Shown here: one piece after another, positions 1-44,989 of the stretch
Position numbering within the stretch: the stretch's first letter is position 1
How the letters are laid out: the number at the start of each line of letters is the position of its first letter
Virus record (IMG/VR): IMGVR_UViG_2872703611_000005
Length of the DNA stretch: 44,989 nucleotides
From: a virus
Lineage: Duplodnaviria > Heunggongvirae > Uroviricota > Caudoviricetes
Strand: one strand, 5' to 3'
Notes under the pieces: model-generated
Databases searched by the model: none
The model's input: only the letters and a program-made list of their open reading frames with translations
Told to the model about the DNA's origin: nothing
Translations under genes and position numbers: made by a program

Positions 1-1119
1 TCAAATAACCAACTTAACCCATTCCTGACCTCGAGTATCGTTATAGCGATCGGTGGTTGCCTGGACTTTATGCCCCAGTAATGTTTTTGTATCGACACCC
101 TGTGCCCGGTACAGCCGTTCTGACAGGGAACGTTGTTCATGAAATGTTGGTGGTGTTTTTCCTGCTGGTGGAATTATTCCAGCCAGGTCCCGTGCTTTGG
201 CAAAGTAATCGCTCAGGTTGTCTTTACTCATCGGCTTCGGTTGTTTCTGGTGCCGACTATGGATTAGATATGGACTTAATATTCTGTCTCGGCACCCATC
301 AATAACTTCTTTTAACGTTATCCCAATGGCATCACAGCGTAGTGTAAGCGGTAACGCCAGACGCATTCCGGTTTTTCCCTGGGTGATATGCAGGTGTTCG
401 TTCCACACATCTGAAAAACGCATGTGGCAAATGTCATCACGGCGCTGACCAGTAACAATCGCAAGAAGCATTGCGTTACGGATAAAGTGTTTTTCAGGCG
501 TTGCGTTGTAAATTTTTTGCCAGTCTTCCAGGGTGAGCCTGGCTCTGGTTACTTTAGGGATCGGTTTACGGGTAGCCTCCGGAGGATTCCATCCAGGAGG
601 AACTTCCCCTGCATGCTGTGCTTCTTTATAAATATCAACCCATAATCCACGATTTACGCTCGCTGTGCTGACCATGTCTTTATCCAGCCACTCATCCAGT
701 ATTAATGCAAAGTCTCTTACTTCCAGTTCTTTCAATGGGTGGTTTCCCAGACGGGAAACCAGGTATGCAGCCATTCGGGCTTTTTCTTTGTGAGTTGTAG
801 TTGCAATATCCCCATTTTTCAGTCGCGTGTCCTGTATTTTCAGATATCGATCAACCCATGCCTTTAATCTGATACCCCGACGTTTTGTTGCTGACGGACT
901 TTCATCAATTTTGCGCATGAAATATTCAGCTTCTGCTGCAGCTATTCGCTGATTGGCTGTGGAAGCGATTTTTTCTGCTTTGCCTTTGTCTGTTCCGAGA
1001 CCGTGAAATTTTCCAGTCACAGGGTTTTTATACTGGTAGTAAACCCTGCCAGTTCTGCGATCAAACTTTTCGTAAAGACCGGTTACGTCAGTGCTGTTTT
1101 TTCGTGGCCTCGGTGACAT
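1..1119 (-). CDS. int: Tyrosine integrase (lambda Int family)
   Basis: 372 aa; lambda Int-like architecture with C-terminal catalytic region ending ...LGHKVQATTDRYNDTRGQEW; first gene at prophage left end, followed by xis. Confidence 0.85.
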   Translation of the reverse strand: MSPRPRKNSTDVTGLYEKFDRRTGRVYYQYKNPVTGKFHGLGTDKGKAEKIASTANQRIAAAEAEYFMRKIDESPSATKRRGIRLKAWVDRYLKIQDTRLKNGDIATTTHKEKARMAAYLVSRLGNHPLKELEVRDFALILDEWLDKDMVSTASVNRGLWVDIYKEAQHAGEVPPGWNPPEATRKPIPKVTRARLTLEDWQKIYNATPEKHFIRNAMLLAIVTGQRRDDICHMRFSDVWNEHLHITQGKTGMRLALPLTLRCDAIGITLKEVIDGCRDRILSPYLIHSRHQKQPKPMSKDNLSDYFAKARDLAGIIPPAGKTPPTFHEQRSLSERLYRAQGVDTKTLLGHKVQATTDRYNDTRGQEWVKLVI

Positions 1120-6773: not shown

Positions 6774-7001
6774 ATGTTTAAATCAGACGTAATTAATTTT
6801 TATGGGACGAAAGCCAAAGTAGCGAAAGCTGCTGGTGTTGATCCATCTGCTGTTTCTCAATGGGGGGAACTGGTTCCTGAAGGTCGCGCGATGCGCCTGC
6901 AAGAGGCATCCGACGGGGAACTTCAGTACGACCCCAAAGTTTATGACGAATATCGTAAGGCAAAGCGGGCGGGGCGGTTGAACAATGAAAATCACCCCTG
7001 A
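6774..7001 (+). CDS. dicC: Cro-like regulator, DicC/YdaS family
   Basis: 75 aa from ATG with GGAGGG RBS; ...LVPEGRAMRLQEASDGELQYDPKVYDEYRKAKRAGRLNNENHP matches DicC-type proteins; divergent from repressor. Confidence 0.75.
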   Translation: MFKSDVINFYGTKAKVAKAAGVDPSAVSQWGELVPEGRAMRLQEASDGELQYDPKVYDEYRKAKRAGRLNNENHP

Positions 7002-39945: not shown

Positions 39946-42900
39946 ATGGCAGTAAAGATTTCAGGTGTACTGAAAGACGGCACAGGAAAACCGGTACAGA
40001 ACTGCACAATCCAGCTGAAAGCAAAACGTAACAGTACCACGGTGGTGGTGAACACGCTGGCCTCAGAAAATCCGGATGAAGCCGGGCGTTACAGTATGGA
40101 CGTTGAGTACGGTCAGTACAGCGTTATTCTGTTGGTGGAAGGATTCCCGCCGTCACATGCCGGGACCATCACAGTGTATGAAGATTCCCGACCCGGTACG
40201 CTGAATGATTTTCTCGGTGCCATGACGGAGGATGATGCCCGTCCGGAGGCACTGCGCCGTTTTGAGCTGATGGTGGAAGAGGTGGCGCGTAACGCGTCCG
40301 TGGTGGCACAGAACACGGCAGCCGCAAAGAAGTCAGCCAGTGATGCCGGCACATCTGCCAGTGAGGCGGCAACCCATGCGACTGATGCTGCAGGCTCAGC
40401 ACGCGCAGCCAGCACGTCAGCCGGACAGGCCGCGTCGTCGGCTCAGTCAGCATCTTCCAGCGCAGGAACGGCATCAACAAAGGCCAGTGAAGCATCGAAA
40501 AGTGCTGCTGCTGCAGAGTCCTCAAAAAGCGCGGCAGCTACCAGTGCCGCTGCGGCGAAAACGTCAGAAACGAATGCGGCAGCGTCACAACAATCAGCAG
40601 CCACTTCTGCATCCGCCGCGACCACGAAGGCGTCAGAAGCAGCCACCTCAGCCCGGGATGCGGCGGTCTCAAAAGAGGCAGCGAAATCATCAGAAACGAA
40701 CGCATCATCAAGCGCCAGTAGTGCCGCTTCCTCGGCAACGGCGGCAGGCAATTCCGCGAAGGCGGCAAAAACGTCTGAGACAAACGCCAGGTCTTCTGAA
40801 ACGGCAGCGGGACAGAGCGCCTCGGCTGCGGCAGGCTCAAAAACAGCGGCTGCGTCGTCTGCCAGTGCCGCGTCAACAAGTGCCGGGCAGGCCTCAGCCA
40901 GTGCCACCGCCGCCGGAAAATCGGCAGAAAGTGCCGCATCGTCTGCTTCAACAGCCACAACGAAGGCTGGCGAAGCCACTGAACAGGCCAGCGCAGCAGC
41001 GAGGTCTGCTTCCGCAGCGAAGACATCCGAGACGAACGCGAAAGCGTCGGAAACCAGCGCAGAATCCTCAAAAACGGCTGCCGCATCGTCCGCCAGTTCG
41101 GCGGCGTCATCGGCATCATCGGCGTCTGCTTCAAAAGATGAGGCGACCAGACAAGCGTCCGCAGCGAAGGGCAGCGCCACGACAGCATCCACGAAGGCGA
41201 CAGAGGCAGCTGGCAGTGCGACGGCGGCAGCACAGAGCAAAAGTACGGCGGAATCCGCGGCAACGCGCGCCGAGACAGCGGCAAAACGGGCAGAGGATAT
41301 TGCATCCGCCGTGGCGCTTGAGGATGCAAGTACGACGAAAAAGGGGATAGTACAGCTCAGCAGTGCGACCAACAGTACGTCTGAAACGCTGGCGGCAACG
41401 CCAAAGGCAGTAAAATCAGCCTATGACAATGCAGAGAAACGTCTGCAGAAAGACCAGAACGGCGCTGATATACCCGATAAGGGACGCTTCCTGAACAACA
41501 TTAACGCGGTCAGTAAAACAGACTTTGCTGATAAGCGTGGTATGCGTTATGTGCGGGTTAACGCTCCTGCAGGTGCAATATCTGGAAAATATTACCCTGT
41601 TGTTGTTATGCGTTCTGCTGGCTCAGTAAGCGAACTGGCATCAAGGGTCATTATCACCACGGCAACGCGAGCCGCAGGCGATCCGATGAATAACTGCGAG
41701 TTTAACGGATTTGTTATGCCAGCCGGATGGACTGACAGGGGGCGTTATGCTTATGGAATGTTCTGGCAATATCAAAACAATGAACGAGCCATCCACTCAA
41801 TAATGATGAGTAATAAGGGCGATGATTTGCGCTCTGTGTTCTATGTTGATGGCGCTGCTTTCCCTGTTTTTGCGTTTATCGAAGATGGCCTGTCAATATC
41901 CGCACCTGGTGCTGATCTCGTTGTTAATGATACGACCTATAAGTTTGGGGCAACAAATCCGGCGACTGAATGTATCGCGGCGGACGTTATCCTTGATTTT
42001 AAGAGTGGGCGTGGTTTTTATGAGTCTCATTCGTTAATCGTTAACGATAACTTGTCGTGCAAAAAACTTTTTGCCACAGACGAAATTGTAGCGCGTGGTG
42101 GTAATCAGATTCGAATGATAGGTGGGGAGTATGGGGCATTATGGCGTAATGATGGCGCTAAAACTTACCTGCTGCTTACCAATCAAGGTGATGTTTATGG
42201 TGGCTGGAATACATTAAGACCGTTTGCTATTGATAACGCAACCGGCGAACTGGTTATTGGAACCAAACTGTCTGCAAGTCTGAACGGTAACGCATTGACA
42301 GCAACAAAGCTGCAAACGCCAAGACGGGTTTCTGGGATTGAGTTTGATGGTTCCAGAGATATTACTTTAACCGCCGCGCATGTGGCTGCTTTTGCCAGAA
42401 GGGCAACGGATACATATGCCGATGCGGATGGTGGCGTTCCCTGGAATGCCGAATCAGGCGCTTATAATGTCACCCGCTCTGGCTACAGCTATATTCTGGT
42501 TAACTTCTATACCGGAGTCGGAAGTTGCCGGACCTTGCAGATGAAGGCGCATTACAGAAATGGTGGTCTGTTCTACCGTTCTTCAAGAGACGGTTATGGT
42601 TTTGAGGAAGACTGGGCAGAAGTTTATACCTCGAAAAATCTTCCACCAGAAAGCTACCCAGTCGGCGCACCAATCCCGTGGCCATCAGATACCGTTCCGT
42701 CTGGTTATGCCCTGATGCAGGGGCAGACTTTTAACAAATCTGCCTACCCGAAACTTGCAGCCGCTTATCCGTCAGGCGTGATCCCTGATATGCGTGGCTG
42801 GACGATTAAGGGCAAACCTGCCAGTGGTCGGGCCGTATTGTCTCAGGAACAGGACGGCATTAAATCGCATACCCACAGCGCCAGCGCATCCAGTACGGAT

Positions 42901-43359
42901 TTGGGTACGAAAACCACATCGTCGTTTGATTACGGCACTAAATCCACGAATAACACCGGGGCGCATACGCACAGTCTGAGTGGCTCTACGGGGTCTGCCG
43001 GTGTTCATACTCATGGTAATGGTATTCGTTGGCCAGGAGGCGGCGGTTCTGCGTTAGCATTTTATGATGGCGGTGGGTTCACTTATGTCCAGAATTCACA
43101 GTATCAAGTAAGCCCGGGGACTTCTTCCTATAGATCGTATTATCAACGTATTCAGACACAGTCAGCAGGTGCTCATACCCACTCGCTGTCTGGTACTGCA
43201 GCAAGTTCTGGCGCACATGCACATACTGTAGGTATTGGTGCGCATACGCACTCCGTTGCGATTGGTTCACATGGACACACCATCACCGTTAACGCTGCGG
43301 GTAACGCGGAAAACACCGTCAAAAACATCGCATTTAACTATATTGTGAGGCTTGCATAA
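39946..43359 (+). CDS. stf: Side tail fibre protein Stf (mosaic, extended)
   Basis: N-terminus [26 protein letters not shown]... and C-terminal His-x-His repeat region ending ...[11 protein letters not shown] match lambda Stf as I recall it; 1137 aa with a large central segment; ATG at 39940 also possible. Confidence 0.85.
40300..41340 (+). repeat. Ala/Ser-rich low-complexity coding repeats inside stf (reiterated ...AAKTSETNA...SE... units)
   Basis: Repeated [18 protein letters not shown] units visible in the translation; generates spurious alternate-frame and antisense ORFs. Confidence 0.7.
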
Positions 43360-43943
43360 TGGCATTCAGAATGAGTGAACAAGCACGGACCATAAAAATT
43401 TATAATCTGCTGGCCGGAACTAATGAATTTATTGGTGAAGGTGACGCATATATTCCGCCTCATACAGGTCTGCCAGCAAACAGTACCGATATTGCACCAC
43501 CAGATATTCCTGCTGGCTTTGTGGCTGTTTTCAACAGTGATGAGGCATCGTGGCATCTCGTTGAAGACCATCGGGGTAAAACGGTTTATGACGTAGCGTC
43601 AGGGGACGAGTTATTTATTTCTGAACTCGGTCCGTTACCGGAAAATGTTACCTGGTTATCGCCGGAAGGGGAGTTTCAGAAGTGGAACGGCACAGCCTGG
43701 GTGAAGGATACGGAAGCAGAAAAACTGTTCCGGATCCGGGAGGCGGAAGAAACAAAAAACAACCTGATGCAGGTAGCCAGTGAGCATATTGCGCCGCTTC
43801 AGGATGCTGCAGATCTGGAAATTGCAACGGAGGAAGAAACCTCATTGCTGGAAGCCTGGAAAAAGTATCGGGTGTTGCTGAACCGTGTTGATACATCAAC
43901 TGCACCTGATATTGAGTGGCCTACGAACCCTGTCAGGGAGTAA
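43359..43943 (+). CDS. tfa: Tail fibre assembly protein Tfa
   Basis: 194 aa starting at ATG overlapping the stf stop (TAATG); lambda Tfa-like. Confidence 0.85.
43786..43943 (+). repeat. Direct repeat copy 1 (tfa 3' segment), paired with 44835-44989
   Basis: About 155 nt of close similarity between the 3' end of tfa and the 3' end of the downstream tfa fragment, flanking the methyltransferase gene. Confidence 0.7.
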
Positions 43944-43997
43944 TCATTGGGATTATGCCGCAGCACGTCTTAAGCAAGAACGTGCTGCGGTTGGATG

Positions 43998-44666
43998 CTA
44001 TTTTTTCCCTGAAGCGGAAAACATTACTACAGTACCTTGAACCTTGGTTTTAACATTCTCGAAATGCTCTGAGAGTATATGTGTTAAGCCTTCTTCGGAA
44101 TCTTTTGTGTTTGAAAAGATGCCTTTCTGATTGTAAATGCGCATCAGTTTTTGACCGAAGCTATTGTGCACAACTCCATCGCCAAGAATTGTGGCTCCGT
44201 ATAGAGTTCCATCGTCAGTTAAGGCCTGCGCCGCATTGCGTATTACACAGCTTTTTGTAGATATATTTCCAGGCAGGCAGTGAAGAAGGTAAAACATGGA
44301 AATGGAATCAAATTGACCATGTAACGCCGCGGGATAAGGTTCAAAAACATCATGGCTAATTTTATGTTTAATTTTTGATTCCCCAGCCCTTGTAGATGCC
44401 GCGTTCAGGCTAGCTTCGTTCAAATCCATTAAAGATATCAGACTACTCTCAGGTACGTGAGTAAGGTAAAACCCAGTTCCAACACCAATATCCAGATGGT
44501 TGTTACCTACATGTTCCAGAAAGTGTGGAAGAAGGTGTTCCTTTGTAGGACATCCCCATGCAAGCCGATTTGATACTCCCAAAACCCACCAGTCATAAAG
44601 CTTTAGGGTAAGTGGTGTGTAAATTTTAGCCCCATCATCTGTGTTTTTTTTCATTGATTTCACCAT
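43998..44666 (-). CDS. ybcY: Class I SAM-dependent methyltransferase (YbcY-like)
   Basis: 222 aa; SAM-binding motif I DIGVGTG; opposite strand, between tfa and a tfa fragment as ybcY in DLP12; lower GC than tail genes. Confidence 0.6.
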   Translation of the reverse strand: MVKSMKKNTDDGAKIYTPLTLKLYDWWVLGVSNRLAWGCPTKEHLLPHFLEHVGNNHLDIGVGTGFYLTHVPESSLISLMDLNEASLNAASTRAGESKIKHKISHDVFEPYPAALHGQFDSISMFYLLHCLPGNISTKSCVIRNAAQALTDDGTLYGATILGDGVVHNSFGQKLMRIYNQKGIFSNTKDSEEGLTHILSEHFENVKTKVQGTVVMFSASGKK

Positions 44667-44722
44667 GTTATAGTTTTATTTGTGAATTAAATCAATTATG
44701 GCGATGAATTACAAGGGGTTAA

Positions 44723-44989
44723 ATGCTGCCGCAGCATAGCGATATTGAAATAGCCTGGTATGCTTCGATACAGCAGGAGCCGAATGGCTGGAAGACCGTC
44801 ACCACACAGTTCTACATCCAGGAATTCAGTGAGTATATTGCGCCACTGCAGGATGCTGTAGATCTGGAAATCGCAACGGAGGAAGAAAGATCGTTGCTGG
44901 AGGCATGGAATAAATATCGGGTATTGTTGAATCGTGTTGATACATCAACTGCACCTGATATTGAGTGGCCGACTTCACCTGCAGAGTAA
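44723..44989 (+). CDS. Tail fibre assembly protein fragment (TfaX-like second copy)
   Basis: 88 aa; C-terminal about 50 aa nearly identical to the Tfa C-terminus ([43 protein letters not shown]). Confidence 0.6.
44835..44989 (+). repeat. Direct repeat copy 2 (tfa 3' segment)
   Basis: See copy 1 at 43786-43943. Confidence 0.7.

Follow-up and report, generated by a model that had tools for sequence, protein, structure and literature searches.

A ybcY-type methyltransferase gene between direct tfa repeats in a lambdoid prophage: a probable captured cargo gene and the intact form of a K-12 pseudogene locus

Introduction

In lambda-type phages, lom and bor are autonomously transcribed cargo genes in or beside the late operon, and such genes are known as morons. 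Rearrangement at the tail-fibre locus itself is familiar from the invertible host-range segments of Mu (G), P1 (C) and e14 (P). In the cryptic prophage DLP12 of Escherichia coli K-12 the tail-fibre assembly genes tfaD and tfaX enclose ybcY (b0562), a pseudogene. Here, we analyse the IMG/VR virus record IMGVR_UViG_2872703611_000005, a 44,989-nt stretch of Caudoviricetes DNA (the window), in which a gene for a class I S-adenosylmethionine (SAM)-dependent methyltransferase lies opposite in orientation to tfa and between two direct copies of the tfa 3′ end.

For the K-12 locus, genomic SELEX (systematic evolution of ligands by exponential enrichment) showed that the RpoD holoenzyme and H-NS bind the ybcY/tfaX spacer in vitro, and a promoter, TTGATT-17-TATAAC, was predicted there (PMC3946193). 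In addition, a ybcY mutant behaved like the wild type in one assay (PMC2408971). We show that the window holds the K-12 ybcY locus in intact form, and that this prophage cargo gene is both very common and already annotated. What is new here are its exact junctions, the chimeric nature of the second tfa copy (tfa′, the counterpart of tfaX), a donor-like locus in Citrobacter, and the probable true start codon together with the nature of the K-12 lesion.

Results

The methyltransferase gene is the intact counterpart of K-12 ybcY

The sequence-only reading of the window had proposed a 222-aa class I methyltransferase on the strand opposite tfa, apparently intact and resembling the DLP12 arrangement. 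The open reading frame (ORF) is indeed present and uninterrupted (Table 1). The tfaD–ybcY–tfaX region of MG1655 is collinear with positions 43505-44969 of the window at 97% identity, with the same genes in the same order and orientation, and ybcY itself is 99% identical to the window ORF at the nucleotide level. Alignment with K-12 revealed a 2-nt deletion in ybcY (ATGAAAAAAAAC to AT--AAAAAAAC) that is absent from the window, whose ORF carries no inactivating mutation. The same protein, WP_000240999.1, is annotated at the same place in E. coli E24377A and strain 203740, and comparison with the loci of relatives recovered the same succession of tfa, reverse-oriented ybcY and a tfa fragment. By sequence and synteny, we assign the window gene to the YbcY orthologue group (b0562; PHROG 2132; WP_000240999).

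The reading frame most probably starts four codons downstream of its first ATG. All 42 of the 42 aligned homologues begin at the fifth codon (M5) of the window ORF, and the PHROG 2132 match covers residues 5-222 (E=4e-157, 218/218 positions), which favours a start at ATG 44654; this codon is preceded by GGTGA. The downstream start is also favoured because the candidate −10 element TATAAC directly abuts the ATG with which the long ORF opens. Judged from these features, the true protein would probably comprise 218 aa. The K-12 lesion (comparison locus L003, ~6795-6807; window 44652-44666) falls precisely on the ATG used by all homologues, so that, as read from the alignment, the deletion destroys the probable start codon and shifts the frame; translation from the upstream ATG of K-12 ybcY would reach a stop after nine codons.

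Direct repeats and the boundaries of a foreign segment

Comparison of the window with itself showed that the 3′ end of tfa is present twice, in direct orientation. The ungapped core spans 158 nt (43767-43924 versus 44816-44973) at 87% identity; if a single indel of 3 nt is allowed, the similarity extends as far as the two stop codons (177 versus 174 nt, 85% identity), while the 100 nt located 5′ of each copy are unrelated (48% identity). The repeat is thus real and far beyond chance. Of the earlier description, two direct copies of roughly the last 155 nt starting at 43786, the direct duplication stands; the length was somewhat underestimated, and the start had been placed 19 nt inside the true repeat. 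The second copy has no counterpart of the initial 136 tfa codons. Its closest intact tfa in the phage collection is at most ~88.5% identical, and we rejected a recent import of this copy from another intact tfa allele.

The tfa gene and its downstream region are 94% identical between lambda and the window, and lambda and its close relatives carry tfa without the insert (43993-44815). Lambda-type homology extends over 43300-43992, through stf, tfa and a GC-rich hairpin, and ends six bases before the methyltransferase stop codon; past this point it returns only as the second tfa copy, from 44816 on. The intervening stretch is accounted for by two Citrobacter freundii loci (L020 and L022), which match window 43986-44809 with 91.8% identity over 825 nt. 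At the left junction (43986-43992), the lambda and Citrobacter homologies overlap by ~7 nt (TGCGGTT) at the 3′ foot of the hairpin. These boundaries agree well with the insertion by recombination at the tail-fibre locus that the sequence-only reading had suggested.

The foreign segment comprises the methyltransferase gene, a 56-nt divergent spacer and a 5′ stub, 31 codons long, of the 79-aa gene next to it. Its GC content is 39-44% (41% in the methyltransferase gene), compared with about 50% in the flanking tail genes (0.45-0.55 across stf and tfa). The hairpin between the convergent tfa and methyltransferase genes has a folding energy of −28.5 kcal/mol on the plus strand (z −4.5) and −23.9 kcal/mol on the minus strand (z −5.6); it is thus stable, and is a probable terminator. 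In phage 204576, the hairpin sequence also follows the second tfa copy (window 43767-43992 versus L015 7517-7743, 88.5% identity), from which it follows that the duplicated unit is 43767-43992, exactly the stretch preceding the insertion point.

In C. freundii, positions 4307-5996 of L020 constitute an SOS-related island beside purB, where UmuD-like (S24 peptidase) fragments are apparently frameshifted.

The second tfa copy is part of a chimeric ORF

The second tfa copy forms the 3′ part of an 88-codon ORF. Its N-terminus equals that of the Citrobacter 79/80-aa gene, and Tfa sequence begins at codon 32. In line with this, the tail fibre assembly family Caudo_TAP matches only residues 31-87 of the 88-aa product, corresponding to profile positions 75-131 of 131, and a full-length match fails. 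Sequence comparison thus identifies the ORF as a chimera of 31 codons of the neighbour gene and the last 57 codons of tfa. In a Klebsiella phage, a small gene of the same phrog_3893 type lies upstream of a UmuD-like ORF.

The chimeric ORF is intact in the window, in E24377A and in phage 204576. Elsewhere it is broken by a premature stop (K-12 tfaX and PhiR68_2), by a frameshift (2G7b) or by replacement of its 3′ end (PhiR26_1), and in E24377A and strain 203740 the Prokaryotic Genome Annotation Pipeline (PGAP) lists it among the pseudogenes. Because it is broken in several relatives, we regard this ORF as a decaying relic.

The cassette is widespread and may move as a unit

Of 5426 complete E. 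coli genomes, 3831 (~70%) carry the 669-nt gene with an identity of 95-100%, and at least 80% of its length is present in 3798 of them. The right junction, made up of the 88-codon ORF and the 5′ end of the methyltransferase gene, was found in 3428 of the 5426 genomes, the left junction (tfa 3′ end, hairpin and methyltransferase 3′ end) in 3121, and the whole tfa–methyltransferase–tfa′ block with the tfa allele of the window in 1498. The cluster of 100% identical proteins has 6589 members, and PGAP names the gene 'class I SAM-dependent methyltransferase'. Among sequenced phages, it is carried by PhiR26_1, PhiR29/30, 2G7b, ev243, PhiR49_1, PhiR68_2, Turner, Kati and 'phage 204576'.

Some phages bear on the movement or loss of the cassette. 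A full tfa is missing from both 2G7b and Ayreon, whose tail-fibre genes are unrelated, yet each retains a truncated left tfa fragment beside the cassette, cut at the equivalent of window 43823 in 2G7b and 43798 in Ayreon. Ayreon (MF807953.1; L018 3239-3587) has lost almost the entire methyltransferase ORF, corresponding to window 44034-44692, and keeps a scar in which the tfa 3′ fragment, the hairpin and the last ~36 nt of the methyltransferase gene are joined directly to the promoter spacer and a 5′ stub of the 88-codon ORF. The cassette of PhiR68_2 begins at the equivalent of 43958, with a pin recombinase gene and ynaE placed between tfa and the cassette (L014 2354-2944). This recombinase is of the PinQ/PinR serine type, and the part of the phage that was examined showed no tfa partner in inverted orientation. 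Overall, the gene is present or absent between otherwise collinear phages with defined boundaries, and its composition is unlike that of its neighbours, as is typical of morons.

The DNA beyond the cassette also varies. PhiR26_1 and 2G7b continue with an alpha/beta hydrolase gene, ompT and int, and K-12 and PhiR68_2 with appY and ompT. PhiR26_1 (L001 5913-8537) and 2G7b (L002 6383-9007) are inducible, plaque-forming lambdoid phages, and since they carry ompT, the gene of the omptin protease is phage-borne and not confined to the cryptic DLP12. Their hydrolase, encoded between the cassette and int, is a secreted-looking protein of 464-494 aa with Abhydrolase_1 and TAP-like domains.

Candidate promoters of the methyltransferase gene

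The methyltransferase gene is antisense to the late operon, and the spacer that separates it from the 88-codon ORF contains two candidate sigma-70 promoters (Table 1). One of them is the TTGATT-17-TATAAC sequence predicted for K-12, conserved in the window at 44695-44667. Expression from the repressed prophage is plausible.

A selected class I methyltransferase of probable small-molecule or lipid specificity

Measured against homologues of 84-90% protein identity, the ratio of non-synonymous to synonymous substitution rates (dN/dS) is 0.21 (Citrobacter), 0.17 (Salmonella) and 0.15 (another E. coli context), and ~56 positions are invariant across 43 homologues from Enterobacterales, Aeromonas, Shewanella and Pasteurellaceae. 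Because of this low dN/dS and the many invariant positions, we regard the gene as functional; it is under purifying selection.

Four Pfam families exceed their gathering thresholds: Methyltransf_12 (37.5 versus 30), Methyltransf_23 (29 versus 27), Methyltransf_25 (27.7 versus 27) and Methyltransf_11 (24.6 versus 21.2). Motif I reads HLDIGVGTG at residues 57-65 (GVGTG at 61-65), with D59, G61, G63 and G65 invariant in the 43 homologues, as is the acidic D81 (ISLMDLN) at the end of the predicted strand 76-81. In class I methyltransferases, the acidic residue ending strand 2 binds the SAM ribose. The AlphaFold2 (AF2) model is of high confidence (predicted local distance difference test score 90.5, predicted template-modelling (TM) score 0.86) and displays a seven-stranded Rossmann-like core with an N-terminal helical lid. 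Both sequence and model identify the protein as a class I (Rossmann-fold) methyltransferase, for which the use of SAM is predicted.

A regular-expression search of the protein for the (D/N/S)PP(Y/F/W) motif of amino (N6A/N4C) methyltransferases and the PC(Q) motif of C5 methyltransferases found neither, which bears out the earlier remark that the enzyme has no DNA-methyltransferase catalytic motif. ENV, which accompanies PC(Q) in C5 enzymes, occurs once, in isolation, at residue 203, and strand 4 is followed by LLHCLPG. The AF2 model shows a single domain of 218-222 aa that lacks any extension for target recognition or RNA binding, and the best 50-60 fold neighbours include no DNA methyltransferase. 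Matches to solved structures at the sequence level are juvenile-hormone acid methyltransferase (JHAMT), UbiG, ToxA, phosphoethanolamine methyltransferases and PmtA, and the Foldseek ranking against the PDB is headed by PmtA (8ys9), followed by JHAMT and PfPMT. The nearest neighbours by sequence and by fold are thus almost all small-molecule or lipid methyltransferases, with no single solved family standing out as closest. Several invariants, namely YDWWV in the lid, HCLPG after strand 4 and YNxKGIFSN in a loop, are specific to the family and not accounted for by any of the solved enzymes compared. NCBIfam returned sub-threshold matches only (CpaM, RquA, PmtA), PADLOC gave no defence-system match beyond a sub-threshold hit, and PHROG 2132 is a family of unknown function. 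On sequence and modelled structure, a small-molecule or lipid methyltransferase is the best reading, with an RNA substrate as a minority alternative.

Homologues outside phages are orphan, plasmid-borne or flanked by insertion sequences (IS). An 84%-identical homologue (L025 and L026; E. coli and ENA contigs) lies in an IS-flanked island with a tannase/feruloyl-esterase gene on one side and, on the other, a block of TetR, catechol-O-methyltransferase-like, esterase and Sel1 genes. This neighbourhood suggests phenolic-ester metabolism, a link not conserved elsewhere. We compared the hydrolases of PhiR26_1 and 2G7b with the esterases of this island and found them unrelated, and a phenolic-ester pathway was therefore discarded as a common theme.

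Prophage setting

The whole window is a complete-looking lambdoid prophage, bounded by the stop codon of int and that of the tfa relic. In strain 203740, a matching prophage separates potC from potB within the spermidine/putrescine transporter operon. Both E24377A and strain 203740 are 99.9% identical to the window in the cassette region, and potB starts 233 nt past the second tfa copy, directly after the prophage end. In this prophage type, the cassette thus fills the whole region between the tail fibre genes and the attachment site.

Two further observations concern the flanking coding regions. The N-terminal third of stf (window 40350-41400) is rich in Ala, Ser and Thr, has 60-64% GC, degenerate short repeats (families D2-D8) and a strong AT skew, and contains long spurious ORFs in other frames on both strands. 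A 45-codon ORF at 43916-44053 on the plus strand begins within the end of tfa, runs across the hairpin and reaches into the methyltransferase 3′ end, to which it is antisense; it is annotated by PGAP as the hypothetical protein WP_001309429.1 in E24377A and strain 203740, and is probably a spurious call.

Table 1. Features of the window that are discussed in the text
Feature	Position	Strand	Basis
Lambda-type integrase	1-1119	-	Gene content of window
Tail-tip gene J	35741-39214		Gene content of window
lom	39282-39881		Gene content of window
Side tail fibre gene stf	39940-43359		Gene content of window
tfa, full-length, 194 aa, last late-operon gene	43359-43943	+	Pfam Caudo_TAP E=1.9e-44
Direct repeat copy 1: last 177 nt of tfa (59 codons plus stop)	43767-43943	+	Window self-comparison
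GC-rich hairpin between convergent tfa and methyltransferase, from lambda-type backbone	43957-43990	.	Fold energy, lambda homology
Putative captured foreign segment, ~823 nt	~43993-44815	.	Citrobacter homology, absence in lambda, composition
Class I SAM-dependent methyltransferase, K-12 ybcY orthologue, longest ORF 222 aa	43998-44666	-	Uninterrupted ORF, Pfam, phrog_2132
Divergent spacer, 56 nt, with candidate sigma-70 promoters	44667-44722	-	Sequence reading, consensus scan
Candidate promoter 1, TTAACC-16-CATAAT	44722-44717 and 44700-44695	-	Sequence reading; scan of the region no better than chance
Candidate promoter 2, TTGATT-17-TATAAC	44695-44690 and 44672-44667	-	Same pair predicted for K-12 spacer
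88-codon ORF (tfa′)	44723-44989	+	ORF list; stop codon is the last base of the window
5′ part of 88-codon ORF, not Tfa-derived, first 31 codons of phrog_3893-type 79-aa gene	44723-44815	+	phrog_3893, residues 3-37
Direct repeat copy 2: relic tfa 3′ end, corresponds to K-12 tfaX	44816-44989	+	Ends at the last base of the window (stop codon)

Discussion

The history that we favour begins with an AT-rich foreign segment of ~823 nt that would have been joined just past the terminator hairpin of tfa, where a short microhomology would have served for a template switch or for illegitimate recombination. The same event would have left the last 177 nt of tfa, and originally the terminator too, duplicated on the far side of the segment, where this tfa 3′ end became fused in frame to the truncated neighbour gene to yield the 88-codon tfa′ ORF. 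The pattern of the junctions would fit a pair of illegitimate joins, made by template switching or by recombination of one phage genome with another, and not transposition. The captured methyltransferase would be a moron, a cargo gene with transcription of its own, located where a lambdoid prophage integrated between potC and potB has its right end. In the lysogen, a sigma-70 promoter belonging to the gene would most probably drive this transcription, which would run antisense to the late operon and be subject to H-NS. The product would be a SAM-dependent enzyme acting on a lipid or small molecule from the host cell or its surroundings, and not on DNA. Finally, the two tfa 3′ ends appear to travel with the cassette and could provide homology for its exchange among, or loss from, lambdoid phages. 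Taken as a whole, capture, moron nature, a selected small-molecule or lipid enzyme and spread of the cassette form the best explanation of the data, and we consider it likely. Within it, the anatomy, junctions, intactness of the gene, selection, fold class and distribution are shown by the analyses above, and expression in the lysogen, the class of substrate and the mechanism of recombination are inferred.

Several observations weigh against this account or parts of it. A sigma-70 consensus scan of the region returned no more sites than shuffled sequence did. Homologues on the chromosomes of Salmonella, Enterobacter and Aeromonas stand alone as orphan genes, and their varied contexts offer no pathway clue, and the literature searched on ybcY, tfaX, the WP accession and the carrier phages reports no function or phenotype. 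The two tfa copies diverge by 15%, which implies either that the duplication is old or that the copies stem from two different tfa alleles; given this divergence, a template switch and recombination between two phages are indistinguishable.

Other explanations for the arrangement have to be considered. E. coli lambdoid and P2/Mu-type prophages often carry a duplicated tfa together with a Pin/Gin invertase, and PhiR68_2 even has a PinQ/PinR-type recombinase between tfa and the cassette, so the two tfa segments might be imagined as the ends of an invertible host-range segment of the Mu G, P1 C or e14 P type, flipped by an invertase and with the methyltransferase inside. However, the repeats are direct and not inverted, no inverted repeat flanks the region (the single inverted pair within 40000-44989 lies inside stf), and a tblastn search of the 45-kb window with Pin gave nothing but one hit at E=8.4. 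Moreover, the second copy is only a 3′ fragment, and what follows it is potB in the near-identical prophages, or a hydrolase gene or appY and then ompT and int in other relatives. An invertible segment is refuted at this locus, and we attach practically no credence to it; the possibility that the repeats are tfa paralogues of such a segment, which the sequence-only reading had kept in view, falls with it. The idea that tfa′ encodes a working protein, such as a short chaperone of the tail fibre, and forms a two-gene divergent module with the methyltransferase fares somewhat better: besides being intact in three of the genomes compared, tfa′ keeps the C-terminal segment of Tfa, a PHROG family of its own exists whose length is exactly 88 positions (phrog_2341), and the right junction accompanies the methyltransferase in 3428 of 3798 genomes (~90%). 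A fusion of 31 unrelated codons to 57 codons of tfa that PGAP calls a pseudogene, and that is broken in K-12, PhiR68_2, 2G7b and PhiR26_1, where the adjacent methyltransferase is intact in all but K-12, nevertheless makes such a function unlikely. Equally, the methyltransferase itself might be a functionless neutral passenger that hitch-hikes with successful prophages, given that K-12 has lost it to mutation with no phenotype on record, that the mutant resembled the wild type in the one assay found (PMC2408971) and that Ayreon has deleted the gene cleanly. Against this view stand the low dN/dS, full-length copies at 95-100% identity in ~3800 genomes and a family conserved from Enterobacterales to Pasteurellaceae with its many invariant positions, which together render a mere passenger very improbable.

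As regards the substrate, a phage enzyme of this class could be suspected of methylating nucleic acid, either DNA in order to evade restriction or tRNA/rRNA with an effect on host translation. The protein, at 218 aa, has neither the DPPY-type and PCQ motifs sought in it nor a target-recognition or RNA-binding extension; its top fold neighbours include no DNA methyltransferase, its PADLOC hit is below threshold, and all of its sequence-level PDB matches are small-molecule or lipid enzymes, so that we hold a nucleic-acid substrate to be improbable. A more specific proposal within the preferred small-molecule or lipid class is that the enzyme is a PmtA-like phospholipid head-group N-methyltransferase, which would methylate phosphatidylethanolamine and remodel the membrane of the lysogen. 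The top Foldseek match, PmtA of Rubellimicrobium thermophilum (8ys9), is of similar length (E=1.4e-11, TM 0.61-0.65), phosphoethanolamine N-methyltransferases recur among the matches, and NCBIfam contains a weak match to Legionella PmtA. Y24 in the N-terminal helix and H129 after strand 4 are, in addition, invariant among the aligned homologues, a pair that we take to recall the Tyr/His catalytic pair of Plasmodium PMT. The score for the PmtA family falls far short of its cut-off (NF045882, 15.7 versus 390 bits), and the match of the profile to 8ys9 has E=0.066; we rate this specific assignment as improbable, while retaining the broader small-molecule or lipid reading.

As a discovery, the locus carries little weight, with the gene, the pseudogene ybcY and tfaD/tfaX all annotated before and the arrangement present in most E. 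coli genomes. What remains is an uncharacterised enzyme under purifying selection in the prophages of a majority of E. coli strains, including enterotoxigenic, Shiga toxin-producing and extraintestinal pathogenic ones, and identification of its substrate would fill a real but modest annotation gap. The clean junctions and the donor-like Citrobacter locus, in turn, provide a textbook case of moron capture and of the formation of a chimeric pseudo-ORF. A bolder scenario, to which we give little chance, is lysogenic conversion through methylation of envelope lipids or metabolites (e.g. a PmtA-like activity on phosphatidylethanolamine), combined with tfa 3′ ends that serve as portable homology arms. 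If true, membrane or surface properties, phage susceptibility or host interaction could be changed in lysogens, and the homology arms would let the cassette hop between tail-fibre loci.

Compared with known systems, the locus shares with the Gin-, Cin- and Pin-inverted segments of Mu (G), P1 (C) and e14 (P) the duplication of tfa sequence at the tail-fibre locus, and differs in that its repeats are direct, its second copy is a 3′ fragment, and neither an invertase nor inverted crossover sites were found in the window. The encoded enzyme is only 12-21% identical to the solved methyltransferases PmtA (8ys9), JHAMT (7ec0), PfPMT (3uj7), UbiG (4kdr), DhpI (3ou2) and MM_2633 (3dtn). The C. freundii locus is far closer: beyond the 91.8% nucleotide identity across the foreign segment, its methyltransferase (P0004) is 90% identical at the protein level and divergent from an intact phrog_3893-type gene of 79/80 aa, as in the window, where this gene is truncated. 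In Citrobacter, by contrast, that gene is complete and followed by umuD-like fragments, DinI is encoded downstream of the methyltransferase, and there is no flanking tfa.

With lambda-type morons such as lom and bor, the methyltransferase has in common that it is an extra gene of deviant GC content, absent from close relatives such as lambda, with its own candidate promoter, a probable hairpin terminator and a position between the tail fibres and attP. It differs from them in encoding a cytoplasmic enzyme and not an envelope protein, in being antisense to the late operon, and in being bracketed by a 177-nt duplication of the end of the preceding gene. The closest match is DLP12 of K-12, which has the same genes in the same order and orientation. 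In DLP12, however, ybcY is lesioned and tfaX is cut to 61 aa by a premature stop, whereas both ORFs are intact in the window; and the DLP12 cassette is followed by appY and ompT, whereas that of the window abuts the prophage end beside potB.

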